The position numbers and the translations under genes are program-made. This document shows, piece after piece, positions 39,246 to 62,383 of a stretch of 64,000 nucleotides of DNA. Source of the stretch: Candidatus Bilamarchaeum dharawalense (lineage in GTDB: Archaea; Micrarchaeota; Micrarchaeia; Anstonellales; Bilamarchaeaceae); assembly GCA_902386555.1 (NCBI GenBank), contig CABMJJ010000009.1, positions 245,525 through 309,524 of the forward strand, given 5' to 3'. Under the pieces are notes generated by a model. The model was not told where the DNA came from, searched no databases, and worked only from the letters and a program-made list of their open reading frames with translations. The first letter of the stretch is position 1, and every line of letters begins with the position of its first letter.

Positions 39246-40020
39246 GAATTCCGCCTCCCAAATTGTAGATATTCAACTCCAATCTTTTGTTTTTTTCGAT
39301 TTTCTCGGCAATTTCGCCAATTATTTTGTTTTTTATCTTCAGATATGTTTCTCTTCCAAGCTCAACATTCATTATTGCATATCTAAGCGATTTTGCGTTA
39401 AAACAAAACATACAGTTATTCAGATTTTCACAATTGTGACAGAAATAGCAATCAGTACAATTGCTGCAGTCACTTAGTTCAAAACATCTAGCTAATTTTA
39501 CAGAATTATAACATTTCATTGAAAAGTTAGAGGCAAAAAGGAAATGACCGCCAAAGCAGTATTCTGATTCACGTGGCCAGAAGCAGTAGGCATCGCATTT
39601 GGAATAGATATACCATACTCCGTCCAAACAGTGCTGGGCATGCATAAATGTTGAGGTTTTCCTAAGATCTTGGTTATTACCAAGCATGACATCTGAAGTC
39701 ACATATTTAATGCCATTTAACTTTTCAGAAGCATTTGCCAGTGTTATCATCTTAGCATCATTTTCAGACAGCTGTTTCTTACCAAGTTCCAGAGATTCTT
39801 CCAGGGTTACCATGTTCTTTTTTATTGAATTAAAAAACAAAATGTCTGGCACGTAAACAATGTTGTCGCTAGCTTGAGACTTGATGTGAAGAGCTTTACT
39901 AACATTTTCCAAGAGCCATTCCCGATAGCTTTCAACGCCAGCAAGTTTCTTGCCAAGAAGAATGAAGGAAGTTTCCTGGAAAGCACGCTCGATTTCATCC
40001 ATGAACATCACCGTTGACAA
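39235..40020 (-). CDS. Cys-rich repeat protein, B module
   Basis: IERAFQETSFILLGKKL, FWPRES, CMFCFNAK, LNIYNLGG. Confidence 0.88.
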   Translation of the reverse strand: MSTVMFMDEIERAFQETSFILLGKKLAGVESYREWLLENVSKALHIKSQASDNIVYVPDILFFNSIKKNMVTLEESLELGKKQLSENDAKMITLANASEKLNGIKYVTSDVMLGNNQDLRKTSTFMHAQHCLDGVWYIYSKCDAYCFWPRESEYCFGGHFLFASNFSMKCYNSVKLARCFELSDCSNCTDCYFCHNCENLNNCMFCFNAKSLRYAIMNVELGRETYLKIKNKIIGEIAEKIEKNKRLELNIYNLGGGIHGI

Positions 40021-40771
40021 TGTCTATCAAAGATGGCAACGCTTTCTTTGATTTGAGAGTATCACGCATGTCGCAGATTAATTTTTCCTTTAGCTTATGG
40101 TATTCTTCAGAGCTGAATTGGCAATTGCCAATCAGATAGCTCTTGTTTCTCTGATTAAATGAAAACATGCAATTGGTACAATTTTCTAAACTTCCTGTGA
40201 AATAACAATCAGAAGCAACATAATTTCTGATGGTTTCCATGCATCGTACATTCTTGTAGGTTTCAAAAGTCTTGATATTGAACTTGCTTGCTTCCCCAAT
40301 GGCATTGCCACCAAAAATATACTCTGCAAATCTTAGTACTGAGGAATAGGCAACAAACTTGCAATCGTAAACATCTTGTGTTTTGTAGATAAATGAGGAA
40401 TTTATGCATCTGTTGGAAGTTTCGACCTGACGCGAATTGCCAAGAACAACATTGCCAATGTAGAATGCCTTTTCCTTTGCCACTGCGATGATGGAGTCCA
40501 GATCTTTTACATCATCGATGTTGAATTTGGCCTTGCCAACTTCTCTCATATACTGATCCATTTCGTCAAGACTAAGGAATTTGGAACCACTAGGGACTTT
40601 ATCAGATGAGACAATAACGTCTTTTCCAGAAATTGCTGATTTTTTCATTCCGAATGGTTCAACATATCGCAAAAGCCATTCTTCGTAGTTTTTGAGCTCG
40701 CCCAGCTCGTCTCCTAGCAATACTTTGCAGGTTTTTTTCCAAGCAGTATTTATTTCCGGGTTCATATTCAC
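39995..40771 (-). CDS. Cys-rich repeat protein, A module
   Basis: AWKKTCKVLLGDELGEL, IDDVKDLDS, YIGNVVLGNS, LPSLIDI. Confidence 0.88.
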   Translation of the reverse strand: MNMNPEINTAWKKTCKVLLGDELGELKNYEEWLLRYVEPFGMKKSAISGKDVIVSSDKVPSGSKFLSLDEMDQYMREVGKAKFNIDDVKDLDSIIAVAKEKAFYIGNVVLGNSRQVETSNRCINSSFIYKTQDVYDCKFVAYSSVLRFAEYIFGGNAIGEASKFNIKTFETYKNVRCMETIRNYVASDCYFTGSLENCTNCMFSFNQRNKSYLIGNCQFSSEEYHKLKEKLICDMRDTLKSKKALPSLIDIVNGDVHG

Positions 40772-41550
40772 TGCCCCACATTGAAAATGTTTAATTTCAG
40801 GCCTTTTGTTTGCTCCAGTTCCTTGTGAATGTAGCCCAAAACCATTTGTTTTATCTCCATATACCTGTCTCTGCCAACTTCTACATTGCAGATGGCATAC
40901 CTCTTGGCTTTTACATTAAAGCAGAACATGCAATTGTTCAAATTCTCGCAATTATGGCAGAACAGGGAATCGGTACAATTGGTGCAATCGCTCATCTCAA
41001 AGCAACGATTGAGATTTTCAGAATTGTAGCATTTAATACAAAACTGAGATGAAAATGTGTAGAAGGTACCAATGCTGTAATCAGATTGTCTTGGCCAGAA
41101 GCAATAGTAGCAGTATTTTGATCGAACCATGGCAACGGATTTGTAGCAATAATGGGAAGAATAGTAGAAATCACAATCAATAAGGTTGCTGCACTCTCCA
41201 TATTTGGTATTAGGAGTAACTGTGGACAGTTTTTGCAGAGTGTTTTTTGCATTGGAAAGATTTAGTTGTTCGAGATCAGCTGGGGAAAGCTGCTTTTTAC
41301 CCTGGATATCATAGCCTTCTTCAATGGTAAGAATATTGTGTTTTATATCTCTGTAAAAATCAAATGGCGGAAGATAGATTTTCTCCCTACTCATCACTGA
41401 CTCTCCATATTCATTTGTGGAAACATTTTCGGTGAGCCATTTTTCGTAGTCTCTGAAATTACCCAGTTTTTTTCCTAAAACAACTGACGTGATGGTTTGG
41501 AAAGTCTTCTCCAAATCAGCTTCTAACTTTGAATCAACCATTCCAATCAC
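40768..41550 (-). CDS. Cys-rich repeat protein, B module
   Basis: LEKTFQTITSVVLGKKL, FWPRQS, CMFCFNVKAKRYAICN, LNIFNVG. Confidence 0.88.
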   Translation of the reverse strand: MIGMVDSKLEADLEKTFQTITSVVLGKKLGNFRDYEKWLTENVSTNEYGESVMSREKIYLPPFDFYRDIKHNILTIEEGYDIQGKKQLSPADLEQLNLSNAKNTLQKLSTVTPNTKYGECSNLIDCDFYYSSHYCYKSVAMVRSKYCYYCFWPRQSDYSIGTFYTFSSQFCIKCYNSENLNRCFEMSDCTNCTDSLFCHNCENLNNCMFCFNVKAKRYAICNVEVGRDRYMEIKQMVLGYIHKELEQTKGLKLNIFNVGQ

Positions 41551-42322
41551 CTTTTCCGCTGAGAATCTGAATTACAGATGGTAGTTTTTTCTTTTTCTTC
41601 AATTCATCTGCAAATTCTTTGACCAATTTGGCCTTGAGACTAGCGTATTTGTCCTTTGCAAGTGGCACATTCCCAATGAGATAGTGTTTATTTCTTTGAT
41701 TGAAGGAGAAGATGCAATTGGTGCAATCTTCAAGACTTGCCGAGTAATAGCTATCTGATGCAACGTTGCAGTGATAGGTTTCCAAGCATCTAATCTGTTT
41801 GTGTGGATCAAGGACTTTTATGCAGAATTGGATCTCTCCACCAAAACAGCATCCGAATGAATATTCGGGGCTGCGGATAGATGTTGTATAAGCAACATAT
41901 TTCCCATCGTAAACATCCTGACAACCGATGGCATAGACAGTATTGACACAGCGATGGGAATTGAGAATGTTACTTGAATTGCCCAAAACAATGTTTCCTG
42001 CATAAACCACCTTTTCCTTTGTAGCACGGACAAGAGAATCGATATCTTTGATGTCATTTATGTTAAAAGGCAAGGAGGCGGTTTTTTTAGCATAGGCTTC
42101 CATTTCGTTGTGTCCAATAACCCTTGCTGTTTTCGGAACCCGATTGGATGAGATGGTAACATCGGTTCCAGATAGGATAGATTTCCTTTTCACTATGGGA
42201 TCGGTATAGATCTTGAGATAGTCAGCAAAACTGTTTAGATCTCCAATTTCTTCCCCAAGAAGAACTTTGCAAGTAGACCGCCAGGATTTGTCAAGTTGGG
42301 CCAAAATCAAAGTATCAGTCAT
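41534..42322 (-). CDS. Cys-rich repeat protein, A module
   Basis: SWRSTCKVLLGEEIGDL, INDIKDIDSL, YAGNIVLGNS, LPSVIQI; start MTDTL at 42322. Confidence 0.88.
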   Translation of the reverse strand: MTDTLILAQLDKSWRSTCKVLLGEEIGDLNSFADYLKIYTDPIVKRKSILSGTDVTISSNRVPKTARVIGHNEMEAYAKKTASLPFNINDIKDIDSLVRATKEKVVYAGNIVLGNSSNILNSHRCVNTVYAIGCQDVYDGKYVAYTTSIRSPEYSFGCCFGGEIQFCIKVLDPHKQIRCLETYHCNVASDSYYSASLEDCTNCIFSFNQRNKHYLIGNVPLAKDKYASLKAKLVKEFADELKKKKKLPSVIQILSGKGDWNG

Positions 42323-43115
42323 GTTTTTCACCTGGTTTCCCAATGGAGTAGATATCAAAATCTAATGCTCTTGTTTTCATCAACTGGCTTGTGATTGTTT
42401 GTAAAAGAATTTTTTTCACGCGCATGTATTGCTCCCGCCCAACTTCTATATTTCCAATTGCATATCGTTTGTTTTTCACATTAAAACAAAACATGCAGTC
42501 GGTCAGGCCTTCGGAATTGTGACAAAACAAAATATCACTGGAATGGTAACAGCCGTCTACCTCGAATGCACGGGTAACTTTAACTGAATTGTAGGTATGG
42601 ATACAGAATTGGGAATATGGGGTGTTGTGACAACCGAACATATTCTGGGAGTACATTGTGTAGTTGGAATATGCCACGTTCTTTATGCCGCCATAAAGAT
42701 CATCACCATAATAGAGAAACATACCGTCACCTGCACCGCCGCATTTGTCAACATTGGTATAGGTTCTCCACCGGTAGTTGCCAATCGCATAGGCAATTGG
42801 AGTAACTATTCGGGTCATCATGTCTTTGAGATCAGAACTTTTAATGTCATCAAAAGTAAATTTGGTTTGGTTTACCATGCCCATTTCTTCCATGGAAATT
42901 GATCGTTTTGTAGAAATTTTCCTTCCCATGAAGTTTAGTGTTGGAAAATTCCACACGATCTTGTCACTAACTGCGGATTTGGCTGGATGGGGAAGTGGAA
43001 TGTGTTTTCCAAGCCAAGAGCCATAATCATCAATACCACTAAGAGATTCGCCAAGAAGGATGCGGGTGGTATTTGAAAATTCCTTTTCCAGTTCAGGCCA
43101 GACCATTTTAGCCAC
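42315..43115 (-). CDS. Cys-rich repeat protein, B module
   Basis: LEKEFSNTTRILLG, CMFCFNVKNKRYAIGN, FDIYSIG. Confidence 0.88.
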   Translation of the reverse strand: MAKMVWPELEKEFSNTTRILLGESLSGIDDYGSWLGKHIPLPHPAKSAVSDKIVWNFPTLNFMGRKISTKRSISMEEMGMVNQTKFTFDDIKSSDLKDMMTRIVTPIAYAIGNYRWRTYTNVDKCGGAGDGMFLYYGDDLYGGIKNVAYSNYTMYSQNMFGCHNTPYSQFCIHTYNSVKVTRAFEVDGCYHSSDILFCHNSEGLTDCMFCFNVKNKRYAIGNIEVGREQYMRVKKILLQTITSQLMKTRALDFDIYSIGKPGEKHD

Positions 43116-43881
43116 CCCTCTCTTCGCCGATGATATCCATTATGGAAACTGTTCGGTGCTTTTTTTTCAAGTCCTGTGCCATTTCTGAAATAAGCTTTGC
43201 TTTCAAAGCAGCATACTGTTCCTTGCTTAACTGTACATTCCCAATCATGTTTCTTTTGGCATGCACATTGAATGTGAACATACAATCTGACGAACCGTTT
43301 GCATTATGGCAGAAATAACAATCAGAGCTGCTGACAGTAAGGCTACACTCAAAACAGCGCTTAAGCGAATTGTTATAGAGACATCGTACCAGCATGGAAC
43401 TGTCCCCACTTGAAGTTGAGGCAAAACAATAGTCGTTGTTTCTCAGCATGTAGCAGTAGGCGATATATTTTCCATTTACAATCATGGATGAATCCAGAAC
43501 ATAATTGCTATCTGTAATATTATCTGAATTTTCAACAAACTTCGAGTTGCCAAGCACTTTGTTGCCACTGTAGATAAATTTTTCTTCAACTGCCTCAAAA
43601 AGAGAATCAATGTCCCTGATCTGGTTAACATCAATTGGTTTTGATAGGATGGTTGCACCAGTGATTTCGTCATTGTAATCAAAGAATTTGGCTTCTTTAG
43701 GATAATGATTGGAAGTAACGAATATGTTTTTTCCAGAAATAATGGATTTCACTGATTTGCCAACCAGTGGTTCTTTCAAATAATCATAATAGTCCTTCAT
43801 CTCACCCAATGGCTCCCCGAATAGTACTTTTGTTGTTGATTTCCAAGACTGATTAATTACATCATAAGCTTTGTCCGCCAT
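43108..43881 (-). CDS. Cys-rich repeat protein, A module
   Basis: SWKSTTKVLFGEPLGEM, VNQIRDIDSL, YSGNKVLGNS, VSIMDII. Confidence 0.88.
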   Translation of the reverse strand: MADKAYDVINQSWKSTTKVLFGEPLGEMKDYYDYLKEPLVGKSVKSIISGKNIFVTSNHYPKEAKFFDYNDEITGATILSKPIDVNQIRDIDSLFEAVEEKFIYSGNKVLGNSKFVENSDNITDSNYVLDSSMIVNGKYIAYCYMLRNNDYCFASTSSGDSSMLVRCLYNNSLKRCFECSLTVSSSDCYFCHNANGSSDCMFTFNVHAKRNMIGNVQLSKEQYAALKAKLISEMAQDLKKKHRTVSIMDIIGEERGG

Positions 43882-45461
43882 AGTCTCTTCCTCCCTCCAC
43901 CGAGAGTAAAGATATCCAAACCAAGTTCCTTATTTTTTTCAAGTTCATCAAGAATCTGGTTCAGTACTGCTGCTCGTATGGATTTGTATTTGTCTGGTGC
44001 AAGTGCACCGTTGCCAATTGCATAGCGTAGGTTTTTTGCATTAAAACAGAACATACTGTCTCTGACATTTTCACAATTATGGGCAAAATAAACGTCTGAG
44101 CAATTGTTGGAGGCATCTACTTCAAATGCTCTGGAAAGATTAACCGAATAATATGTGTGAAGACAGAAACTGGAGGTGAATGAAAGCCCGCAGCCATACA
44201 TATATTTTGAATTTCTTGGCCAGTAGGAAAATGCAACATTATCATTGAAAGATGCAATTGGACAGTAATAGCAATTTACTGAAGTATTGCATAATGGAAC
44301 AACAATAAGATTTTTTGTTTCTCCAAGCTGGCCTTCTGGATTGAAATATGCTATTTTGCCAATTGATTTTGACAGACTAGAGATCGAATCGATGTCTTCA
44401 ACATCAAGTTGCATGTTTTCGCCCAACTCCCAGTTCTCCCATTGCGTGACCAGACGATCTCTGGAATAAAGATGGAACGGGGATGTTTCACCAAGATAGA
44501 CGGTTTTTCCACTTGCCAGGGACTTTTCCTCGCTGATGTGGGGGACATGCCTCAGAAGCCATTCCTTGTAATCATCAATTTTTTCTAGTTGCTTGCCAAA
44601 AAGTAATGATGTTGTTTTCTGGAATCCCAATTCAATTGGTTCTTTGTTCTTCTGATCCCTATCACCGGAAGGACTGAACCCTTTTGGAACCTCTAGTGCC
44701 TTGCAGCTTTTGGATGCGAATTCCATAAGCGACGGGAGTTTTTTCTTTTTTTCAAATTCGCCTCTCAATTCCTCAAGAAGTTTTGCCTTTAGAGACAGGT
44801 ATTTATCTTTTGAAAGTTGGATATTGCCAATAACATTTCGCTTGTTCTTTAGATTGAATGAGAATAGAACATCTTGAGAGCCCTGGACACATGAACTGAA
44901 ATAGCAGTCACTTGAATCATAGCACTTCCAAGCTTCTAGACATCTTGATTGCTTATGGGTTTCAAATGCCCTTACGGTGCTGGTAGTGAAAGCATCGCTG
45001 ACTACACCAAAAAGATATTTGCTTCCTCTACAATAGGAGCAGTATGCCATGTATTCTGAATCATAGATAAAATTGGAATTGTAAACATAAAATGAATTCT
45101 GAACGTCGGAACTCTTTTCCACATGCTTGGAATTAGCAAGAACAACATTGCCACAGTAATAAAGCCGTTCTTCTAAGGCATCTAAAATCGAATCTATATC
45201 TTTTACCTGGTTAATGTTCAATGGCTCCTGTTTTTTCCCATAATCAACTTCGTCTAATGAGAGGAATTTGGCATTGTCAGCATAGTCTGAGACTGCACAA
45301 TACACTTCTTTTCCCGAAAATGCAGACTGTTTGTTTTTAAGTGGAACAAGACCTTCAGAAAGCCAATCTGCATAATCGTCAATATCACCAACTTCCGCAC
45401 CAAGAAGAACTTTCATGGTTGATTTCCATGAACGATTAATTGCATCCTTTGTTTGGTTCAT
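43857..45461 (-). CDS. Cys-rich repeat protein, fused A+B
   Basis: SWKSTMKVLLG (A), LPSLMEF, IELGFQKTT (B), YWPRNS, LDIFTLGG. Confidence 0.88.
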   Translation of the reverse strand: MNQTKDAINRSWKSTMKVLLGAEVGDIDDYADWLSEGLVPLKNKQSAFSGKEVYCAVSDYADNAKFLSLDEVDYGKKQEPLNINQVKDIDSILDALEERLYYCGNVVLANSKHVEKSSDVQNSFYVYNSNFIYDSEYMAYCSYCRGSKYLFGVVSDAFTTSTVRAFETHKQSRCLEAWKCYDSSDCYFSSCVQGSQDVLFSFNLKNKRNVIGNIQLSKDKYLSLKAKLLEELRGEFEKKKKLPSLMEFASKSCKALEVPKGFSPSGDRDQKNKEPIELGFQKTTSLLFGKQLEKIDDYKEWLLRHVPHISEEKSLASGKTVYLGETSPFHLYSRDRLVTQWENWELGENMQLDVEDIDSISSLSKSIGKIAYFNPEGQLGETKNLIVVPLCNTSVNCYYCPIASFNDNVAFSYWPRNSKYMYGCGLSFTSSFCLHTYYSVNLSRAFEVDASNNCSDVYFAHNCENVRDSMFCFNAKNLRYAIGNGALAPDKYKSIRAAVLNQILDELEKNKELGLDIFTLGGGRKRLWRTKLMM

Positions 45462-47023
45462 TTCATCCCACCTATTGTGAAAATGCTAAACCGGCAGTTC
45501 TTCTTCTGGAGAATTTCTGAACTAAGCTGCTCAAGAACAGATTCTTTGATTTTTGAATAATCAGCTTGGGGCAGGGATGTGTTCCCGATGGCATGTCGCT
45601 TACCTTTCACATTAAAACAAAACATCGAATCAGTTAGCCCTTCTGAATTATGGCAAAACAATGCATCTGCGCATTTGGTAGAGGTATCAACTTCCAAACA
45701 GCGGCTTAGGTACAGAGAATTATGGCAGTTGATGCAGAATTCAGAATTCATATTGCGGTAGCCACCAAAGATATACTTGGAACTGAACGCTGACGATATG
45801 ACCCCCAAATTCTCGCTTTGAACAATGTCAAAGCCCTTGTAGATATTATTTGTGTAGTAGACCAAAGGAGACTGGATCGTGTTTTTGTTTACGCCATCCA
45901 GAATTTCTACTGAGAAATAGGCAATCTGACCAAGCTGGGAAGTGATGGAATCAATCGACCCTAGAGCAGACTGGTCCATGACGATCTTGCCCAGTTCCAG
46001 CCCTTCGTTTAAAGTCACAAAAAGGTCTTTTGGAAATAATGAAATGGCATAAAGATCTGGATGGGAGGGACGGTAGGTTGTGCTGCCAAACATGGTTTGT
46101 ATTGGTTCCATCTTCATTTTTTCAGAGGCAAGCCAGTTTTCATATTCTGTGATTGACCCCGGCTCTTTTTTCAGAATAATTTTGAAGGTGGATGCAAAAC
46201 TTTTCTCAATGGGTTTCATATCACTGCTTTCCTGTTTTTTTGGAACAGAAATTGGAGGTTTTTTTCCAGATTTGCTTCTGTTTACAAGTTCAAACAATGA
46301 TGGATATTTTTTGTTGGTTTTTAGCGACTGGATAACTTCGGAAAGAAGTTTCTTTTTCAAGTCAAAGTATTTATCTCGTGAAAGTTGGACATTGCCTATC
46401 TTGTGTTTCTGGTTTCTTTGAAAAAAGCAGAACATTAACTCGCTAGAATTCACGCATTGGTTTGAAAAGTAAAGATCGCTACAATCACCAATAATATGAC
46501 TTTCGAAAATTCGCTTGCAATTGAATCCGCCGAAAAACCGTATGGTAAATTCTGTCTTCCCAAACCAGCCTGATCCGAAAATGTTCTTGCTACCAAGGCG
46601 GATAAGCGAGGAATAGAAGACATTTGTCGATTCTGAGACATTCAAAGAATTTGCAACATAATTGGAATCCATCACAAGATCAGATGATTCTACGAATTTT
46701 GAATTTCCTAGAACTCTGTTACCGGTGTAGGCCCATTCCTCTGAAACTGCACGAACTAGAGAGTCTATGTCTTTGATATCGTTGATGCTTAATGGTTTGG
46801 ATGTTGAGATTTCATCTGCTGAGATTACGTTTGCCAACTTAGAATAGTCTGATGCAAGGTAAACTTCCTTGCCAGAAATAGCAGATTTAGAAATTTGTGG
46901 TTTGGGGCAGTATTCTGCCAACCAGTCCTCATAGTCTCTAAGCTCGCCCAGTTCCTCTCCTAGAAGAATCTTGCACGTAGACTTCCAGGATCGGTTGAGT
47001 GCTGAGTAGAGCTCGGAATTCAT
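45458..47023 (-). CDS. Cys-rich repeat protein, fused A+B (first gene of the operon)
   Basis: SWKSTCKILLGEELGEL (A), YPSLFEL, IEKSFAST (B), FSIFTIGG. Confidence 0.88.
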   Translation of the reverse strand: MNSELYSALNRSWKSTCKILLGEELGELRDYEDWLAEYCPKPQISKSAISGKEVYLASDYSKLANVISADEISTSKPLSINDIKDIDSLVRAVSEEWAYTGNRVLGNSKFVESSDLVMDSNYVANSLNVSESTNVFYSSLIRLGSKNIFGSGWFGKTEFTIRFFGGFNCKRIFESHIIGDCSDLYFSNQCVNSSELMFCFFQRNQKHKIGNVQLSRDKYFDLKKKLLSEVIQSLKTNKKYPSLFELVNRSKSGKKPPISVPKKQESSDMKPIEKSFASTFKIILKKEPGSITEYENWLASEKMKMEPIQTMFGSTTYRPSHPDLYAISLFPKDLFVTLNEGLELGKIVMDQSALGSIDSITSQLGQIAYFSVEILDGVNKNTIQSPLVYYTNNIYKGFDIVQSENLGVISSAFSSKYIFGGYRNMNSEFCINCHNSLYLSRCLEVDTSTKCADALFCHNSEGLTDSMFCFNVKGKRHAIGNTSLPQADYSKIKESVLEQLSSEILQKKNCRFSIFTIGGMK

Positions 47024-49220: not shown

Positions 49221-50321
49221 ATGGGGAAAATTAGATGTGCTGTTGTTGGAGTGGGAAACTGTTTTGCTGGTTTGGTCCAGGGAATTGAATATTACAAGAG
49301 ACACCCGAACGAGGAGGTAACCGGTGTGATGTATGAAAAAATAGGCGGCTATACTGTTCATGATATCGAATTTGTTGCTTCATTTGATGTCGCTGAGAAT
49401 AAGGTTGGAAAAACTCTCGCAAAGGCAGTTTATGAATATCCAAACAAGGTGAGATGGACTGATTCGGTTAGTTGCTGTTCTGGTACGGTGAAAGAAAGTC
49501 CGATTCTGGATGGGGTAGGAATCTATGTCGAAAACATGATAAAGCCAATAAAACAAACGAAGACGGTAGAACAGTTGAAAAAAGAGGCTATAGAAGAAAT
49601 AAAAAAATCAGGAGCCCGGATTATCCTGAATCATCTGCCGGTCGGCTCGCAGAAGGCAACGGAATTTTGGGCAGATATTGCGCTTGAAACTGGATGTGGA
49701 ATGGTAAATGCCATGCCTGTCTTCATTGCAAGCGACGTGAAATGGGCACAGAGATTTACGAAGAAAAACTTGCCCATTGTCGGGGACGATTATAAGGGAA
49801 TGATTGGTGCCACCATAGTCCATAGAACCCTAGCAAAATTATGCGATTCTCGAGGTACAAAAATAGACAAAACATACCAGATTAACGTTGGTGGAAATAC
49901 AGATTTCATAAATATGCTTGAAAGAGACCGATTACAAAGTAAAAAGATCAGTAAAACCGAATCTGTTCAGTCACAGCTTTCAAAAAGGCTGCCCGATGAC
50001 CAGATTTATGTAGGTCCTTCGGATTTCATACCTTTCTTGGGAAATACCAAACTTATGTTCATGCGCATAGAGGGTAGGATGTGGGCTAACATACCCTATA
50101 ATATGGAGGTTAGACTCGAAGTAGATGACAAAGCTAATTCCAGCGGGGTTTCTGCTGACGCACTAAGATATGCACAATTTGCATTGGATAAAAAAGTAGG
50201 CGGACCGTTAGTAGGGCCAAGCGCCTGGCTTATGAAGCACCCACTGAAACAGTTTAGTGATTCAAAAGCAAAGGAATTAGCGGAAAAATTTGCCGCGACT
50301 GGGATTAACGCAGAAGACTAG
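49221..50321 (+). CDS. ino1: myo-inositol-1-phosphate (inositol-3-phosphate) synthase
   Basis: VGVGNCFAGLVQG, LPVGSQKA, PIVGDD, GATIVHR, YQINVGGNTDFINM, SKKISKT, VGPSD. Confidence 0.95.
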   Translation: MGKIRCAVVGVGNCFAGLVQGIEYYKRHPNEEVTGVMYEKIGGYTVHDIEFVASFDVAENKVGKTLAKAVYEYPNKVRWTDSVSCCSGTVKESPILDGVGIYVENMIKPIKQTKTVEQLKKEAIEEIKKSGARIILNHLPVGSQKATEFWADIALETGCGMVNAMPVFIASDVKWAQRFTKKNLPIVGDDYKGMIGATIVHRTLAKLCDSRGTKIDKTYQINVGGNTDFINMLERDRLQSKKISKTESVQSQLSKRLPDDQIYVGPSDFIPFLGNTKLMFMRIEGRMWANIPYNMEVRLEVDDKANSSGVSADALRYAQFALDKKVGGPLVGPSAWLMKHPLKQFSDSKAKELAEKFAATGINAED

Positions 50322-51306
50322 TAGGGTTATGGCAATTTTTGTTAAGTATCTTAGAAGCTATAAGTAACATAGTCAACGGAATGCGCGATTCCCCACGACG
50401 CATATGCTCGAATTGACGTAACGTGTACTTTACTGGGGAATTTTGATTAAGTCGTAACACGGCTCGATTATCTGTACCAAATTTATTTTTTAGAGACGTA
50501 AGGAGGTGTGAACCATAGTTAACACGTCGAACCTGATTAATTCGATTAACTGCTAGATTAAGACGAAAATTTTTCTTTCGGCTCAAAAATCCTACGTATT
50601 TGTAAAAATTTAGAACCGAATTGTTGTTTGTAACAAAAAGCAATAACGTAAACTTATCGGTTTTATGATGTCTTATGTGTAGCTTGCCTGCTTTCACACC
50701 GAAGTGAAGCAACAGGTTTTTGATTTGTAACATGAACATTACGCCATTGTGAATGTGATCCTTGCGTTTATTCATGCAATAGTTTAGCTCTATCGCACTC
50801 GGACGCCTAGAACGTAGTGAGACACATCCATCAAAATTAAACAAAATCCTGAGAAACGCAGCTCGGATTTCAGGAGAACCGGAAACTATCCATTCGGGTA
50901 TATAGTATTCAGTTTTTGTTTTATCACCACTAGGTACGCCAAGAAGGACAAACGATTTTGCTAACATAGAAGACTGGATTAGTGCCTTGTAAGAATGTCT
51001 CTTAGAAAAACCAGTTTTTGATAAATACCGAACCACCTTACCTCGTATGCCAAAAAGACTATAGACTTTATCCAAAAACCACTCACATTCGCTCCTGGAA
51101 TTTGAATAAAGGAGTAGTTTACTTAGTTTTGGAGCTCCATCTCTCCAAGAAAAATCGATATGGCCATCAGTTATCAAAGCCGCAATAACTTCTGCTAGCT
51201 CTTTAGATGGAAAAATAGGGAACCAATTCTTGCAAGCAGCTAACTGTTTAGGTTTATTATTGTATGCAGACGCAATCTGTTCGAATTTAAGTAACTCACC
51301 CCCCAT
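50305..51306 (-). mobile_element. free-standing two-motif LAGLIDADG (DOD-type) homing endonuclease gene
   Basis: LAEVIAALITDGHI and IRAAFLRILFNFDGCV, IPEWI, FYKYVGFL; no intein splicing ends; overlaps the ino1 stop. Confidence 0.8.
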
Positions 51307-56337: not shown

Positions 56338-57303
56338 ATGAAGGAATTGGATCTGCTTGACAGGCGTATAATGTATGAGTTAGACACCAATGCCAGGACA
56401 CCGGCTTCAGAAATAGCAAAAAAATTAAAAAAAAGCAAGGAAACGATTAATTTTCGAATAAATCGACTGATTGATGGTAGATACATCCGCTACTTTTATA
56501 CTGTTTACAATACCTCCAAGCTAGGCTGGTACCACCATAAGGTATATGTGAAATTCAAGAATATAACCCCGGAGAAAGAAAAGGAACTGTTCGAATATTT
56601 ACTGGCCCAGCCCTTTCTCTCCTATCTGGCCAGCGTAGAAGGATACTACGACTGTATTTTTCTAGTTATGGCCAGAGACTCCCAGGACATGGTTAATTTC
56701 CTCCATCCATTTGTTTCAAAATTCGGGGATTATATTCAACAGAAGGACTTGGTAATTTTTTTAACAACCCATCGCCTGAACAACCGGTTCCTCTACCCTG
56801 GGGAACGGGCAGATTACTGCTATCAAGTTCCTTTGGGACATTATAAACTAGACGAAACAGACCAAAAGATTTTAGCCATACTTTCAGACAACGCTAGGTT
56901 TCCGCTAACACAAATTGCAAAAAAACTAAAACTTGATCCGAAAACGGTCAAATACCGAATGAAAAAATTAGAAAAAGACAACATAATACTGGGATATGTC
57001 TCAGCTCCAGATTTCAACAAGCTTGGATTGCAGTTTGTACAGATTAACATGACATTTAAGGACCCGACCATAACTCAATCAGTAATAGAATATTTCAATT
57101 CCACCAATGGCTGTTTGTTTGCAATTGAACTCCTTGGGAAATATGATTTGCTTGTCGAGCTCCATGTGAAGAACAATGATGAACTCAGATCGATAGTAGA
57201 TGGATTTCGCAAGAAATTTGTTACGCAGGTTAACGATTATGATGTCCACACCATAAACAAGGAGTATACCATGGTCTGGGGACCGTTCTCAGAGAAAAGA
57301 TGA
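56338..57303 (+). CDS. tandem Lrp/AsnC family regulator
   Basis: LDLLDRRIMYELDTNAR and LDETDQKILAILSDNAR HTH units, GKYDLL. Confidence 0.9.
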   Translation: MKELDLLDRRIMYELDTNARTPASEIAKKLKKSKETINFRINRLIDGRYIRYFYTVYNTSKLGWYHHKVYVKFKNITPEKEKELFEYLLAQPFLSYLASVEGYYDCIFLVMARDSQDMVNFLHPFVSKFGDYIQQKDLVIFLTTHRLNNRFLYPGERADYCYQVPLGHYKLDETDQKILAILSDNARFPLTQIAKKLKLDPKTVKYRMKKLEKDNIILGYVSAPDFNKLGLQFVQINMTFKDPTITQSVIEYFNSTNGCLFAIELLGKYDLLVELHVKNNDELRSIVDGFRKKFVTQVNDYDVHTINKEYTMVWGPFSEKR

Positions 57304-57633
57304 CTATCTTTTAGCAGTAACTTTCTCAACAGCCAGATCCTCTGCCAATTCATGGATTAGTTTGTTATCCAGAACGATTAATTCCTGAACTATTGGGTTG
57401 GTAATATTTAATTTGAATAATTTTGCACGACCAAGTTGTCGCGTTGGTTTGACAATGCCGATTTTTACAAGATCTGGAAAGAAAGTGTGGATGGTACTCC
57501 ATGCCACGCCAGAATTCTCAGCAATCTCGGTAAGTGGATAATCAAATTCCCTATAGGTTATGAAAAAATCTATGACTCTCACAAGAGGGTAGTCGCCAAA
57601 TAATTTTACAAATGAGGATTTTTCTTCTTGCAT
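57304..57633 (-). CDS. small winged-HTH protein
   Basis: YPLTEIAENSGVAWST...TRQLGRAKLFKLN; leaderless ATG 30 nt after TATA. Confidence 0.75.
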   Translation of the reverse strand: MQEEKSSFVKLFGDYPLVRVIDFFITYREFDYPLTEIAENSGVAWSTIHTFFPDLVKIGIVKPTRQLGRAKLFKLNITNPIVQELIVLDNKLIHELAEDLAVEKVTAKR

Positions 57634-57704
57634 AAATTTATTGTGGGTAGTAATGTTTTTAAATTTGAGCTTGTAATTTAAATTTGCGAACATTGGGGGA
57701 TTGA

Positions 57705-57977
57705 ATGAACGACGTAAGGACAGCAGTACTGAGAAAACTTGCCAAACATGGATATTGGGGTAATCGACATACGGCATTCGAGAATCTCCATAAAGGATTT
57801 CCTAGTCATTTTGGCAACGAGGTCAAAAAAACTGCAACGAAGCTTATTAAGGAAAATTTTTTAATACCAAAACCAACTTCCTATGGGTTACATGTTTCGT
57901 TAAATCCAAGAATGAAGGAGATTATAGAAAAAATAATAGGTACTGCCGAGGGGCAGAATTCTGAAACTAAGAAATAA
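57705..57977 (+). CDS. small basic hypothetical protein (wHTH-like)
   Basis: WGNRHT...KLIKENFLIPKPTSYGLHVSLNP. Confidence 0.65.
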   Translation: MNDVRTAVLRKLAKHGYWGNRHTAFENLHKGFPSHFGNEVKKTATKLIKENFLIPKPTSYGLHVSLNPRMKEIIEKIIGTAEGQNSETKK

Positions 57978-58030
57978 AAATACAACCAGCTAAGATAGGT
58001 TTACAAAAAATAAGGTAGTGAGTGATAGGT

Positions 58031-58432
58031 ATGGTCAAATACGCATTCAACGAATTCGCCATAGAATGGCTTAAAGAACACAAATTTACAGAAGAAGAGA
58101 TAGATGATATTCAAAGCATCATGAATAAGTTAGAGGTACAGAAAAACAATGATGAAACCATTCAAAGACTCCTAAAGAATGCGATTCCTAAAGTTGATGC
58201 CATAGTTACACTCCTGGCTTCCATTACTGATGTAAATGGCAAACCAATATGTTTTGAAGATAATGGACTAATTGACATACCAGATGAGGCCAGAGAATAT
58301 TTTGAGCATGATCTTGAATTTGAAGAGCTGGATATTTTTGTAGATAAGATCAAAAAAGTCAAGTTTGCAAGACGATTTTCCTACCCAAAAAGGAGAAGCG
58401 AGAAAAAAGGGGATAGACACTCAACTGTCTAA
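58031..58432 (+). CDS. hypothetical acidic protein
   Basis: ORF with SD-like GTGA upstream; no motif. Confidence 0.55.
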   Translation: MVKYAFNEFAIEWLKEHKFTEEEIDDIQSIMNKLEVQKNNDETIQRLLKNAIPKVDAIVTLLASITDVNGKPICFEDNGLIDIPDEAREYFEHDLEFEELDIFVDKIKKVKFARRFSYPKRRSEKKGDRHSTV

Positions 58433-58708
58433 TCATCGGATGACTGAAAATTCTTTGGAGTTATTTTTTGGTTCAACCCAAGCAAATTCCAATTCTTTTA
58501 CATGTGCATTTTCTGGACCATGATAGCACCATTCAAGCAATTTTTCAAGACTCGACCTGCTTCCTTCGGCCAAAATTTCCACAGAACCATCTTTTTTGTT
58601 TGTTACCCAACCAACCAGATTGAGCTTGGATGCCATAGCCTGAGTATTTGCACGGAAGAAAACACCCTGAACAGCACCAAAAACTTGAATATGGATCGCA
58701 AAGACCAT
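58433..58708 (-). CDS. acyP: acylphosphatase
   Basis: GAVQGVFFR, GWVTNKKDGSVE, GPENAHV. Confidence 0.92.
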   Translation of the reverse strand: MVFAIHIQVFGAVQGVFFRANTQAMASKLNLVGWVTNKKDGSVEILAEGSRSSLEKLLEWCYHGPENAHVKELEFAWVEPKNNSKEFSVIR

Positions 58709-58780
58709 GGTTGAGATAAGGACGAAAAGTAATAAATAGCAAATAACCATACCTTTAAAACCATTTCCTGACACAATAAC

Positions 58781-59947
58781 ATGTTAATGACCGCTCCGAA
58801 TCAACTTCAGTTTAGACCAGAAAATGCCAGTTCTAAGGTACTCGGCAGGCTGATGGCTTGGAAAAATGGGTGGAAAACGTATCAACCATTGACAAGTGCC
58901 ACCAGAGCTGTTGCCATACCTGAAAAAGAGGTTCAAAGACCAAAACTTACTGATCCTAAAGAACAAGGCAAATGGAATTTGAAATTAATACAAGCGACAA
59001 CAACCAAAGAAGCAGAAGACGCTTTGACACATGGTGCGAATATTAACTGCTATGTAAAAAATGATTCTTTAGGTATAGACAGTGCTTCAGTTCTTATATT
59101 TGCAGTGATTGAAAAGAGATCAGAATTATTTGATTTCTATTTGACAGAGCCAGGAGTGGATATAGACAGAAAGGATAGTAACGGATTCAGTGCTGTCATG
59201 CGAGCAGAAGTCTTAGGACAAATTGAAATGGTAGCTAAGCTCAGGGCGAGGGGAGCTGGATATACTGAAGAAGACAAAAAAACAGTTTATGAATTGAAAC
59301 TGATTAGAGCTAAAACAGTTGAAGAAGCAAGAGATGCCTTAGCGCATGGTGCGGATATTAACTGTTATGTTCAGAAGGGGCAGGTACGAAGTGCTTCAGT
59401 TTTATTATTATCAGTAACTGAAAATAAATCAGAATTGTTCGATTTCTATGTGGAACAGCCAGGAATTGACATTAATAGAAAAGACAATTATGGATTTTCA
59501 GCTATAATGAGGGCAGACTTCTTAGGACAAATTGAAATGGTAGCTAAGCTCAGGGCAAAGGGTGCTGTTTACACTAAAGAAGATGAGAAAAAAGTCTGGG
59601 AGCTGAGACTGATTAGAGCTAAAACAGTTGAAGAAGCACGAGATGCCTTAGCGCATGGTGCTGATATTAACTGCGTTGCAGAGAATCCATCGATAAATGT
59701 ACGAGATGGATCGGTGTTGATATTTGCGGTTTTAGATAATAACCAAGAACTATTTGACTTTTATGTGGAACAGCCAGGGATTAACCTCCAAAAAAGAGCA
59801 ACAAATGGATGGAATGCATTGATGGATGCTGTCCACAGCAAACGCAAGAAAATGGAGAAAAAACTAAGAGAAAAAGGATGTACATTATCAGCTGATGAAG
59901 AAGACGCAGTACGGCAATTCAAAGCGTATACTCCGAAAAGACAGTGA
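58781..59947 (+). CDS. ankyrin repeat protein with N-terminal leader motif and three ~103-aa units
   Basis: LxHGADIN and DIxRKDxxGFSAxMRA repeats; DNA repeats with 309-nt period (59212/59521). Confidence 0.85.
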   Translation: MLMTAPNQLQFRPENASSKVLGRLMAWKNGWKTYQPLTSATRAVAIPEKEVQRPKLTDPKEQGKWNLKLIQATTTKEAEDALTHGANINCYVKNDSLGIDSASVLIFAVIEKRSELFDFYLTEPGVDIDRKDSNGFSAVMRAEVLGQIEMVAKLRARGAGYTEEDKKTVYELKLIRAKTVEEARDALAHGADINCYVQKGQVRSASVLLLSVTENKSELFDFYVEQPGIDINRKDNYGFSAIMRADFLGQIEMVAKLRAKGAVYTKEDEKKVWELRLIRAKTVEEARDALAHGADINCVAENPSINVRDGSVLIFAVLDNNQELFDFYVEQPGINLQKRATNGWNALMDAVHSKRKKMEKKLREKGCTLSADEEDAVRQFKAYTPKRQ

Positions 59948-60645
59948 GATTCATGATTGTCGAACAACCACGTAAGGTAATGCCAGCAGATGCTCAGATA
60001 GGGAGGATGGTGGCTCTTAGGAATGGATGGAGAGCTTACGAACCTATCCAATTGGTATCAAGAGCACCTGTTCAGACCAAAACAGAGACCACAAGAGAAG
60101 AATATGCAAGATGGCTTGCTGAAGAATTAAAGGATATTGCATCGTTACATGGAGATGTCTTAGGATCGGGTAGTGAAGCAGAAAATAGAACAAAACAACT
60201 GCTTCTTGATAAATTAAAAACAAGCATAGATAGAAAAGATGCGCAAGGGATGATCTCCGTATTACAAAAAATGTTACCCACACCAGTATTAGGTATGCGA
60301 TTTGGCGGTGATTTTTCACAAACAAGATTTGGAGCAGCCAGATTTTGTCTTGCAATAGAAACATTATACGAATTAGGAGAAAAACAACTAGCTAGAGAAT
60401 TCCTGAATGCATTGGCATCTGAATATAATTTTACTAGGCAGATAGGAAATACCGTCTATGGATGTGGATTGGTACATAAAGTTCCGGTAGCAGTTACTGC
60501 AATGAAAATAGGGGAAAGTTATGTGGCAAGAAAATGGTTGCAGCACCTGCTTAAAAAAGCTCCTGAAAAAAATGATCACGAATGGGAAACTTTGGGCTAT
60601 GCCATGGCTCTGGAATTGGGTAAAGAAGTCGGAATAAGAAAATAA
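59944..60645 (+). CDS. hypothetical helical protein with N-terminal leader motif
   Basis: Coupled to the ankyrin gene; IGRMVALRNGWRAYEPI near the N-terminus; the start may be ATG 59953. Confidence 0.7.
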   Translation: MRFMIVEQPRKVMPADAQIGRMVALRNGWRAYEPIQLVSRAPVQTKTETTREEYARWLAEELKDIASLHGDVLGSGSEAENRTKQLLLDKLKTSIDRKDAQGMISVLQKMLPTPVLGMRFGGDFSQTRFGAARFCLAIETLYELGEKQLAREFLNALASEYNFTRQIGNTVYGCGLVHKVPVAVTAMKIGESYVARKWLQHLLKKAPEKNDHEWETLGYAMALELGKEVGIRK

Positions 60646-60686
60646 AATTTTATAAAAAATTAAAAAAAGAGATTGGATCAGTCCAT

Positions 60687-60737
60687 ATCTTGAACGACGA
60701 ATCGTTCAAGAGAGTATTGAAACGCTATGCGTTTCAA
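60687..60737. repeat. double hairpin at the thermosome 3' end
   Basis: TCTTGAACGA-CGAA-TCGTTCAAGA and ATTGAAACGC-TAT-GCGTTTCAAT. Confidence 0.85.
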
Positions 60738-62383
60738 TCCATTCCCATGTCACCCATGCCGCCTGGACCACCTGGTGGCATTCCGCCTCTACCTCCTCTT
60801 GAACTGATTATATCATCAATTCTTAGGATTAGTCTTGCGGTTTCAGTTGCAGAGACAATGGCTTGTTTTTTGACCTTTGCTGGCTCAAATACGCCAGCTG
60901 CTTTTAGATCAGCAACTTTGCCATTAAGAACGTCAACTCCAACGGTTTTACCCGTTGCTTCTTTGTGTTTTGTTCTAAGGGCAACGATGGTATCGATAAC
61001 ATCCATACCTGCATTTTCTGCCAAAGCTCTTGGAATGGATTCCAATGCTTCTGCAAATGCCTGAATGGCAAGCTGTTCTCTGCCGCCGATGTGGGTTGCG
61101 TAGTTCTGGATTTCTTTGCTGATTTCCATTTCCACACTGCCACCACCAACAACGTATTTACCATCCTGCAATGCACTGGCAACTGCGCCACGGGCATCAA
61201 CAACTGCTCTTTCGACTTCACTGACAACATGGTCAGTTCCGCCGCGAACAAATACAGTAACGGATTTTGGATCTTTGCATTTTTCTACAAAAACCATTGC
61301 TTCGCCGGATATTTTTTTCTCTTCAACAAGACCAGCATGACCAAGGTCTGCTTCTTTAAGATCTTCAAGTGTTGAAGCAATAACAGCGCCAGTTGCACGA
61401 GCAAGTTTTTCCATATCGCTTTTTTTGACTCGTCTTATTGCAGTGATTCCTTTCTTTGCAAGGAAGTGCTGGACCAAATCATCGATGCCTTTTTGACAGA
61501 AGACAACATTTGTCTTGGCAGCTACGATTTTATCCACCATATCTCTCATCATTTTCTCTTCCTGGTGGAGGAATGCTTCCATCTTGTCCGGAGAGGTTAT
61601 TTCGATTTTGGCATCGGTTTCTGTTTTTTCGATTTCAAGCGCTGCATCCAGAAGAAGGATTTTGGCATCCTTAACACTCTTTGGCATACCTGCATGAACT
61701 ACTTCTTTGTCGACCAATACACCACGAATAAGTTCGGTATCAAGAACTTCTCCGCCTGCTTTCTTTTCGATTTTTATAAGATCAAGATCAACTGTTGTTT
61801 TACCGTTTTTTGTTTCAGCAACCTGCATGACTGCTTCAGACATTAGGACGGCTATTTTCTTCTTTTCATCATCATTTCCAATACCTTTTGATCCCATGGA
61901 AACAAGCGCAATTTTAACTAAAATTTCCTTGTCAGTTGGTAAAACTGGTTCGGATATTTTTGCAAGTGCTTCTTCTGCTTTCTTGGCAGAAAGTTCATAC
62001 CCCTTAATGATTACGGTTGGGTGTATGTTTTGATCTAAAAGTTCACCTGCCTTTCTGAGTAGATTACCAGCGATAACTACACTGGTGGTAGTACCATCAC
62101 CAACTTCCTTGTCCTGGGTTTTGGCAACTTCAACCATCAGCTTTGCAGCTGGATGATCAACATTCATTTCTTCAAGAACGGTTCTACCGTCGTTTGTTAT
62201 TACAATATCGCCCAAATCAGAAACAAGCATCTTGTCCATACCTTTTGGACCAAGGGTAGTCTTGATTATGTTGGCTACTGCATAGCCGATTGCAATGTTA
62301 ATTCTCATTGCATCTCTTCCAATAACTCTTTGAGCCCCTTCTGGGAGCACATAGGTTTGTTCGCCACTTACTTGTTTGCTCAT
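60734..62383 (-). CDS. ths: thermosome (group II chaperonin) subunit
   Basis: [43 protein letters not shown] tail. Confidence 0.97.

Follow-up and report, generated by a model that had tools for sequence, protein, structure and literature searches.

Why would two adjacent genes in a small archaeal genome carry the same short peptide near their starts when the rest of the two proteins is unrelated? This question is raised by g1 and g2, which lie in a 64,000-nucleotide stretch of the Candidatus Bilamarchaeum dharawalense genome (contig CABMJJ010000009.1; G000:C9:245525-309524 in our numbering, G000 being this genome) that we refer to as the window. The genome assembly holds 1,273,724 bases (1.27 Mb) in 11 contigs and is 88% complete. 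A sequence-only reading of the window had proposed that the shared peptide is a portable leader added to varied cargo and that a second subtype occurs in another gene pair, g3 and g4. We find that the motif, here called the tag, exists, is selected at the peptide level and sits on unrelated bodies, that it is restricted to one genus and that it evolves in concert within genomes. As a tentative explanation, we suggest that it may be a lineage-specific recognition or docking tag of about 21 residues, bound in the cytoplasm by one shared reader.

The g1 open reading frame (ORF; 58781-59947, plus strand) encodes 388 amino acids (aa), comprising the tag, a linker rich in Pro, Glu and Lys and three ankyrin modules of about 97 aa. 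The g2 ORF (59944-60645, plus strand) follows directly, with a GTG start at 59944 that overlaps the g1 stop (GTGA) or an alternative ATG at 59953, 5 nt past the stop. The product has 233 aa if translation starts at the GTG and 230 aa, as in the protein database entry, if it starts at the ATG; behind the tag and a linker it has an alpha-helical repeat body that is an orphan. The tag core is SKVLGRLMAWKNGWKTYQPL in g1 (S18-L37; 58832-58891, plus strand) and DAQIGRMVALRNGWRAYEPI in g2 (D16-I35 counted from the GTG; 59989-60048, plus strand), and residues 22-37 of g1 and 20-35 of g2 have G-R-x-x-A-x-[KR]-N-G-W-[KR]-x-Y-[EQ]-P-[LI] in common. Both ORFs and their motif are present as had been described, but the genes do not literally start with it: about 15-20 poorly conserved residues precede the motif in each protein.

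The description of a linker followed by unrelated bodies was borne out. The g1 body matches Pfam Ank_2 in three stretches (E 1.8e-13; 51.3 bits against a cut-off of 27.3) and Ank_4 (1.2e-8), which identifies it as an ankyrin-repeat protein, and its orthologue in the congener G278 is 55% identical across 365 aa. The g2 body matches no Pfam or NCBIfam family, the best Pfam score being a weak one to TPR_6 (E 0.2), and we found no relatives in 100 other genomes of the same order or among 5.8 billion proteins of similar length, where g2 matched only itself. Its Atlas model (predicted template modelling score 0.66) is an alpha-helical repeat whose nearest clusters are TPR/PPR-like, with template modelling (TM) scores of 0.36-0.46 that lie below 0.5. 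Beyond the tag, a single ankyrin-like stretch of 16 residues, I-D-R-K-D-x-x-G, is common to g1 and g2 (E 0.026).

The second pair lies 40 kb away on the minus strand. The g3 protein (18131-19798; 555 aa) consists of the tag, a linker and a conserved body of an undescribed family, and the g4 protein (14847-17090; 747 aa) of the tag, an uncharacterised region and a C-terminal PP2C phosphatase domain. Their tag cores are PSVIARSLAYKWGMPFADPI (P16-I35; 19694-19753, minus strand) and LAMVVRSLAYKWGVHVYEPI (L19-I38; 16977-17036, minus strand), respectively. Both bear the R-S-L-A-Y-K-W-G variant, which aligns to the tags of g1 and g2 without gaps, exactly as the sequence-only reading had said of the two subtypes.

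The body of g4 is predicted to be a PP2C phosphatase on the strength of a match to Pfam PP2C_2 (PF13672; 3.7e-7, 30.4 bits against a cut-off of 24). In a scan of the whole genome it scored 32.5 bits to the same model and was the sole PP2C match, and a further match to NCBIfam Stp1_PP2C (5.8e-15) fell under that model's cut-off. A control scan of four model archaea found no PP2C. The genome encodes one clear Hanks-type Ser/Thr kinase of 489 aa (G000:C7:164563-165360 region; locus L127, 1012-2481, minus strand), a receptor-type protein with a single transmembrane helix and, at its C-terminus, an outside domain that we take to be PEGA-like. This single kinase is likely the counterpart of the single PP2C, g4.

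The g3 family has eight aligned members, among them two tandem copies in G123, which belongs to another genus (g9), that have no recognisable tag. Neither Pfam, NCBIfam nor, with a profile of the family, the PDB sequences gave a match to g3. Eight of its ten nearest Atlas structure clusters are protein kinases, at TM scores of 0.19-0.30 and from a poor model (predicted local distance difference test score 0.38), and the Asp of a possible D-x-G in the family is not conserved. A kinase-like fold is possibly a lead for this family, and we treat it as nothing beyond a lead. Two g3-like genes of G089 have 'VHVQQGP' at their N-termini, a sequence found nowhere else in that genome.

Several lines of evidence indicate that the tag is more than a chance resemblance. 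The loose pattern R..A.[KR].G.....P[ILV] has exactly four matches in the six-frame translation of the whole genome, and these are the tags of g1-g4, near gene starts. Ranked over 1.16 million positions by an ungapped profile of the g1 and g2 tags, the g4 tag comes first after the profile's own sequences; a g3 and g4 profile puts the g1 tag second in the same way. Ungapped profiles of each locus (locus 1 holding g3 and g4, locus 2 holding g1 and g2) also recovered the other in the correct register over the same number of positions: the locus-2 profile ranked the locus-1 tags 3 and 6, and the locus-1 profile ranked the locus-2 tags 9 and 41. Judged by these ranks, the relation between the subtypes is real but weak. 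At the DNA level the tags have only 59% identity per column, and most of the residues they have in common are reached through different codons; in the R-S-L-A-Y-K-W-G of g3 and g4, all six residues with more than one codon, Tyr excepted, differ in codon. It is thus the peptide that is under selection, not an RNA element, nor is the likeness due to recent copying of DNA.

No curated model in Pfam, NCBIfam, PADLOC or PHROG covers the tag (residues ~15-40 of g1-g4); PADLOC and PHROGs gave generic ankyrin matches only. A PDB profile search with the tag returned chance-level internal matches, the best at E 0.013. An AAA ATPase, a protein of about 620 aa that we take to be GatE-like and a benzoylformate decarboxylase contain the pattern by chance as an internal helix-strand element, and we discarded them. 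Literature searches on Micrarchaeota and DPANN ankyrin, PP2C or N-terminal motif proteins turned up no description of such a tag.

How far does the tag extend beyond this genome? Searches with sequences of this genome alone (profile A1) did not detect the tag in 200 further genomes from the phylum, where the best match had an E of 0.0045 and the ten inspected were chance matches. Against 1.84 billion protein representatives, A1 retrieved only g2, g4 and one Cys-rich repeat protein, the last an artefact of six repeats that inflate its score, and a word search with residues 1-60 of g4 among 5.8 billion proteins returned g4 itself only. The nearest species by thermosome identity, G286 (94%) and G278 (91%), were absent from these earlier samples. 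Diverged tags are present at syntenic loci in both, as well as in G291. G278 has three tagged genes between its acylphosphatase and thermosome genes, with tags of the form ..A-R-R-G-W-P-K-[LF]-E-P-L-R; the three in G286 are orthologues of g3 and g4 and a membrane protein; and G291 has a tagged g4 orthologue. A 511-aa neighbour in G286 had appeared to carry a tag as well, but this is a weak, unsupported look-alike.

A profile of 12 tags then retrieved genes of G281 and G285 from outside its training set, all of them near the starts of long ORFs, at per-genome E-values of 1.9e-4 to 3.5e-3 over 40 genomes, and an 18-sequence profile (A6) added G272 at 6e-6. In total, the tag is found in 8 of the 40 genomes of the genus (G000, G278, G286, G291, G118, G281, G285 and G272), with 19 strong matches. 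The relation also holds in the reverse direction. A hidden Markov model (HMM) of ten tags from other genomes placed g3 first (6.7e-8) and g4 second (0.0045) of 13,453 ORFs here, and a profile of the three G278 tags placed g2 first and g1 second of the 1.16 million positions. Among 401 genomes of the phylum, strong matches of profile A4 were confined to this genus and nothing beyond it was convincing; the four best matches outside the genus were internal helices of a conserved enzyme or spurious Arg-rich frames. When A6 was run against 5.8 billion longer proteins, with 8,000 candidates scored, it recovered 12 training proteins and two strain variants. We conclude that the tag is restricted to one genus, and its reach, at 8 of 40 genomes, is limited.

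Grouping 21 proteins by all-against-all BLAST and Pfam gave six body types: PP2C (570-1,850 aa), the g3 family, ankyrin, polytopic membrane, HEAT-like and the g2 orphan, the last two being singletons. BLAST matches across families were confined to the tag. The membrane family comprises three proteins with two to six helices predicted by a hydropathy window, and all three are rich in Lys and Arg before the first helix and at the C-terminus. Because the positive-inside rule places this N-terminus inside, the tag is predicted to be cytoplasmic in these carriers. The sequence-only reading had asked whether homologues of the bodies exist without the leader, and they do: apart from the untagged g3-family copies in G123, ankyrin matches to g1 occur in 23 of 61 genomes of the family, none covering the tag. 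Ankyrin genes have expanded greatly in three genomes of the same family, with 19 matches to g1 in G253 and 11 each in G243 and G054; some form tandem arrays, and none is tagged.

The tagged genes occupy two loci. Locus 1 consists of g3, a VIT1 transporter gene and g4, and it adjoins secF/secD here and in G286, G285, G059 and G050. Locus 2 is an insertion, as the acylphosphatase gene abuts the thermosome gene in four of six other genomes of the genus; the other two, neither of which yielded a tag, have one unverified ORF at this position. What locus 2 contains varies from an ankyrin gene and an orphan here to membrane, ankyrin and membrane genes in G278 and a membrane gene with an opposite-strand gene in G286. 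Two tagged proteins of G285 (G285a and G285b) have an additional module of 146 residues in common, at 45% identity.

Across its carriers the tag follows the consensus [DST]-P-x-x-[LI]-A-R-S-[ILV]-A-x-[RK]-[WL]-G-h-P-x-h-[DE]-P-[LI]. Conservation spans 21 columns and is at background level past column 28. Conserved columns with small or special residues are Gly (15/18), Arg (14/18), two Ala (13/18 each), two Pro (11/18 each) and Asp/Glu (15/17), and hydrophobic positions recur at i, i+1, i+4, i+5 and i+8. From this pattern we infer an N-capped amphipathic helix of about three turns, formed by a capping [DST]-P and [LI]-A-R-S-[ILV]-A-x-[RK]-[WL] and ending at the conserved Gly, then a short extended Pro/acidic/hydrophobic stretch (h-P-x-h-[DE]-P-[LI]), which would lead into a flexible linker. 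In the 30 residues after the tag, Pro is enriched 2.0-fold and Glu 1.5-fold. The anchor Gly lies at residues 20-52 in 16 of 17 proteins.

The tag is not a Sec or Tat signal peptide, which would need a basic N-region (with twin arginines for Tat) and then a hydrophobic core some 10-20 residues long. Nowhere in g1-g4, nor in another 14 proteins that are tagged or related to tagged ones, does a 19-residue window reach a mean hydropathy of 1.6; windows at or above this value occur in the three membrane-family proteins only, far behind the tag. Nor is it a class III (prepilin-type) signal, whose [KR]-G/A cleavage site leads straight into some 20 hydrophobic residues: after its conserved [RK]-x-G the tag continues with h-P-x-h-[DE]-P and then a linker that is polar, not hydrophobic.

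The longest carriers are giant PP2C proteins of 1,200-1,850 aa (loci L059, L060, L118 and L138; G050, G118, G281 and G272). In the giants from G281 and G272, the open frame runs for about 260 residues, including a region common to both, before the motif is reached. The giants start with a 'Motif A', L-H-K-x-[LI]-W-x-E-T-G-V-x-L-x-E, about 40 residues ahead of the tag, and their shared C-terminal module contains the similar [ET]-[IL]-V-Q-D-V-A-x-[RK]-L-G-[IL]-x-P-R-D. Motif A scores just 10-12 and ranks 2-3 within each giant protein, and by resemblance it and the C-terminal elements may be further copies of the tag element.

Given that the tag sits on different bodies in different genomes, its sequence could follow either the body or the genome. 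Tags from the same genome on different bodies have a mean identity of 0.39 (17 pairs), compared with 0.31 for tags from different genomes on the same body family (29 pairs) and 0.27 when both differ (105 pairs). For 12 of the 16 tags that have a choice, the nearest neighbour is in their own genome. Features peculiar to the tags of one genome are Y-K-W-G here, D-[KR]-[LM]-G-L-P in G286, R-R-G-W-P-K in G278, A-x-W-G and F-D in G281, and S-I-S-x-R-L and P-I-L-E in G285. We conclude that tags evolve in concert within genomes. The divergence at synonymous sites makes recent gene conversion unlikely, and a shared, co-evolving reader is the simplest account because tags of the same genome resemble each other more than they resemble the tags of orthologues.

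We therefore put forward, as a possibility we favor without rating it an even chance, that the leader is a docking tag for such a reader. One putative reader protein would bind the tag in the cytoplasm and would co-evolve with the tags in each genome. It would gather a small, fast-changing set of proteins, namely the sole PP2C, the g3 family, ankyrin, TPR-like and HEAT-like repeat proteins and polytopic membrane proteins, most likely in a complex at the cell membrane. A cytoplasmic action that does not depend on the tag's position is suggested because the tag of the membrane carriers is predicted to lie inside and because the motif is internal in G281 and G272. A link to phospho-signalling may follow, as the tag connects the cell's only PP2C to repeat scaffolds and membrane proteins.

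A number of observations weigh against this docking proposal. Most of the likeness within genomes is between neighboring genes and could owe something to old local duplication or to gene conversion. Between orthologues, the tag core is less conserved than the whole protein in g1 and its G278 orthologue G278b (6/19 residues against 53%) and in g4 and its G286 orthologue (4/20 against 45%); g3 and its G286 orthologue are the sole pair in which the core exceeds the whole (13/20 against 49%). Of the 19 strong matches in the genus, 18 are the profile's own sequences. The helical hydrophobic moments are moderate, 0.14-0.57, and the helix-plus-strand shape is read from the pattern of residues. The reader itself is a hypothetical protein. 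Furthermore, the effector-like traits of the carriers (variable gene content, orphans, and ankyrin, PP2C and HEAT bodies) would fit exported effectors equally well. Finally, in HMMER profile searches neither subtype retrieves the other. The sequence-only reading had regarded such a failure, together with confinement to these genes, as fatal; the failure did occur, yet the tags are found in other genes. Its portable module gains from six body types in 8 of 40 genomes, and it is narrowed by the confinement to one genus and because g1 and g2 may descend from an old tandem duplication instead of having received the tag in two separate graftings.

What else could place one peptide on such different proteins? 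The tag might be an export or translocation signal for the non-Sec delivery of effector-like proteins to the cell surface or to a host archaeon, with a chaperone or ATPase as its reader. Micrarchaeota are host-dependent, and this organism belongs to that phylum and has a 1.27-Mb genome; the bodies are of kinds that symbionts commonly deliver (ankyrin, HEAT/TPR-like, PP2C and a possibly kinase-like family), the gene content of locus 2 is variable, g2 is an orphan, concerted evolution is compatible with a single reader and a TrwB/HerA-like ATPase is encoded within the window (34440-36632). We nevertheless consider export unlikely. The tag has no hydrophobic or twin-arginine region, three carriers are polytopic membrane proteins whose tag is predicted to be cytoplasmic, and two giant PP2C proteins have the motif internally. 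In addition, g4 is the cell's only PP2C, alongside one resident Hanks kinase, and the ATPase does not track the tag across the genus. We know of no archaeal effector-delivery signal of this kind. The more specific form, in which the tag addresses ankyrin, HEAT/TPR-like, PP2C, kinase-like and membrane-inserting proteins to a contact site or host cell by an undescribed archaeal delivery route, is in our estimation distinctly unlikely; if true, it would provide a sequence handle for listing DPANN effectors.

Simple descent needs no function at all: the tag would be an ordinary helix-Gly-strand structural element, spread by local duplication from the N-terminus of an old gene at the PP2C locus. 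The tagged genes are indeed limited to two loci, where most are neighbors, g1 and g2 align collinearly over about 120 residues in BLAST (E 5e-7, driven mostly by the tag), and G285a and G285b share their 146-residue module. The pattern also arises by chance as an internal helix-strand element in the three enzymes named above, and elements resembling it are found again in the C-terminal module of the PP2C giants. Yet no single ancestral body can have diverged into PP2C, ankyrin, polytopic membrane, HEAT-like and g3 bodies, and a non-conserved Pro-rich linker parts the motif from every one of them, so that it is no component of their folds. Synonymous divergence combined with amino-acid identity indicates long-term selection on the peptide, and genome-specific features are common to different bodies; we give descent alone a rather slim chance. 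It is very unlikely that the tag is instead an amphipathic helix that binds lipid and holds soluble proteins at the cytoplasmic face of the membrane with no protein reader. Such a helix would suit the aromatic and basic cluster around the Gly (W-K-N-G-W-K-x-Y, Y-K-W-G and R-R-G-W-P-K), the hydrophobic spacing of i, i+1, i+4, i+5 and i+8 and helical moments that reach 0.57. However, lipid-binding helices tolerate wide sequence change, and the position-specific conservation of small or special residues (Ala, Arg, Gly, Pro and Asp/Glu) would be unusual for one; moreover, it would be redundant on the three membrane-embedded carriers and leaves the genome-specific co-variation unexplained. Least probable of all, in our view, is a regulatory peptide acting in cis, whether as a degron or by tuning translation from within the nascent chain. 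The position near the N-terminus in 16 of 17 proteins, the constant presence of secF/secD beside locus 1 and Trp/Gly/Pro-rich features that loosely recall arrest peptides would speak for it. On the other hand, the secDF genes are divergently transcribed from the tagged genes or upstream, not downstream, of them, the carriers are large proteins rather than short upstream ORFs, and the motif is internal in two proteins.

The docking tag we propose resembles several known docking motifs, cargo tags and effector markers in kind and is unrelated to them in sequence. The D-motifs of eukaryotic MAP-kinase systems are short linear motifs that recruit unrelated phosphatases, scaffolds and substrates to one hub. 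Like the tag, they are a flexible N-terminal stretch common to unrelated partners, here a PP2C and repeat scaffolds; unlike it, they follow a basic-x-hydrophobic-x-hydrophobic pattern with no helix-Gly-Pro core, and the present case is an archaeon with a single Hanks kinase. The encapsulation peptides of microcompartments and the cargo-loading peptides of encapsulins place a short amphipathic helix and a poorly conserved linker on unrelated cargo, which is the same helix-linker-body architecture. The carriers here differ in that they include membrane proteins and giants of 1,200-1,850 aa, and shell genes were not detected in this 88%-complete genome, where Linocin_M18 (PF04454) and BMC (PF00936) scored at best 15 and 18.5 bits, both under cut-off. 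In the capsid targeting sequence of phage T4, as in our proposal, one N-terminal peptide on exchangeable unrelated bodies serves one reader. The tagged genes, in contrast, are chromosomal and lie among housekeeping genes (secDF; thermosome and acylphosphatase), the sequence is different, PHROG matches are limited to generic ankyrin ones and there is no evident protease cut motif.

Bacterial secreted effectors with a MIX region offer another parallel, as a conserved N-terminal marker on polymorphic, fast-changing bodies in variable loci. MIX is a much longer region with three motifs and is tied to the type VI system, which is not expected in a 1.27-Mb archaeon (no search for it was made); the [KR]-x-G-h-x-h-Y of the tag is, we presume, loosely like the central MIX motif. 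To our knowledge, no docking, cargo or effector tag of this kind has been described in this phylum, dealings between DPANN archaea and their hosts are largely uncharted at the protein level, and most lineage-specific DPANN proteins are unannotated. A tag that is under selection as a peptide, sits on unrelated bodies and changes in step within each genome is a rare and testable handle, and the identity of its reader would distinguish a signalling complex at the membrane from the cargo of a delivery route.

Turning to the sequence upstream of g1, the octamer CACAATAA (58772-58779, plus strand) ends 1 nt before the ATG, and a TATA-like TTTAAAA (58754-58760, plus strand) lies 12 nt ahead of the octamer and 21-27 nt ahead of the ATG. 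By its position, TTTAAAA is probably the promoter core of a leaderless or nearly leaderless transcript. The octamer had been taken for the promoter of the operon. It is neither the TATA box nor the promoter itself: it lies against the ATG, downstream of the TATA-like box, and it recurs before other genes. The window holds seven copies where 4.0 are expected, a number reached in 9 of 100 shuffles, and four of the seven show the order of a TATA-like box, about 12-16 nt, CACAATAA, 1-12 nt and an ATG. On the minus strand, examples of this layout precede ORFs that start near 31864, 49039 and 57632. Of the 79 copies in the whole genome, 17 (21%) are followed within 12 nt by the first codon of an ORF that is 80 aa or longer, compared with 3-16% for 30 shuffled octamers, and the exact octamer is absent from g3/g4. 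CACAATAA may be a recurrent start-proximal element, perhaps promoter-related in this organism, that is not specific to tagged genes. Rfam gave no match in window positions 57000-61500, and the public sequencing runs listed for this sequence are four DNA runs of one study, which contain small shares of the sampled words, and no RNA run.

The window contains other features of note. The TrwB/HerA-like ATPase mentioned above (plus strand, 730 aa) matches DUF87 (2e-10) and TrwB_AAD_bind (2e-8) and has a patchy distribution across the genus: counting this genome, 13 of 40 encode it, with 65-87% identity. We considered it as a partner of the tag and rejected it: it was present in four of the six tag-bearing genomes then known and in 8 of 33 others, a tally drawn from incomplete assemblies and related genomes, and G272, found later, is tagged yet has no such ATPase. 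Positions 37680-47023 (minus strand) encode nine co-oriented paralogues with no Pfam match. Six are about 260 aa long; the remaining three, of 521-534 aa, contain this unit twice through internal duplication. In pairwise comparisons they are 24-46% identical, and E-values go as low as 1e-127. A free-standing ORF of 333 aa (50305-51306, minus strand) between the genes for myo-inositol-1-phosphate synthase and DNA ligase matches LAGLIDADG_3 (1.4e-6). The G+C content of this genome is about 40%, against 48-59% in the fetched loci of its congeners, a wide spread for one genus.

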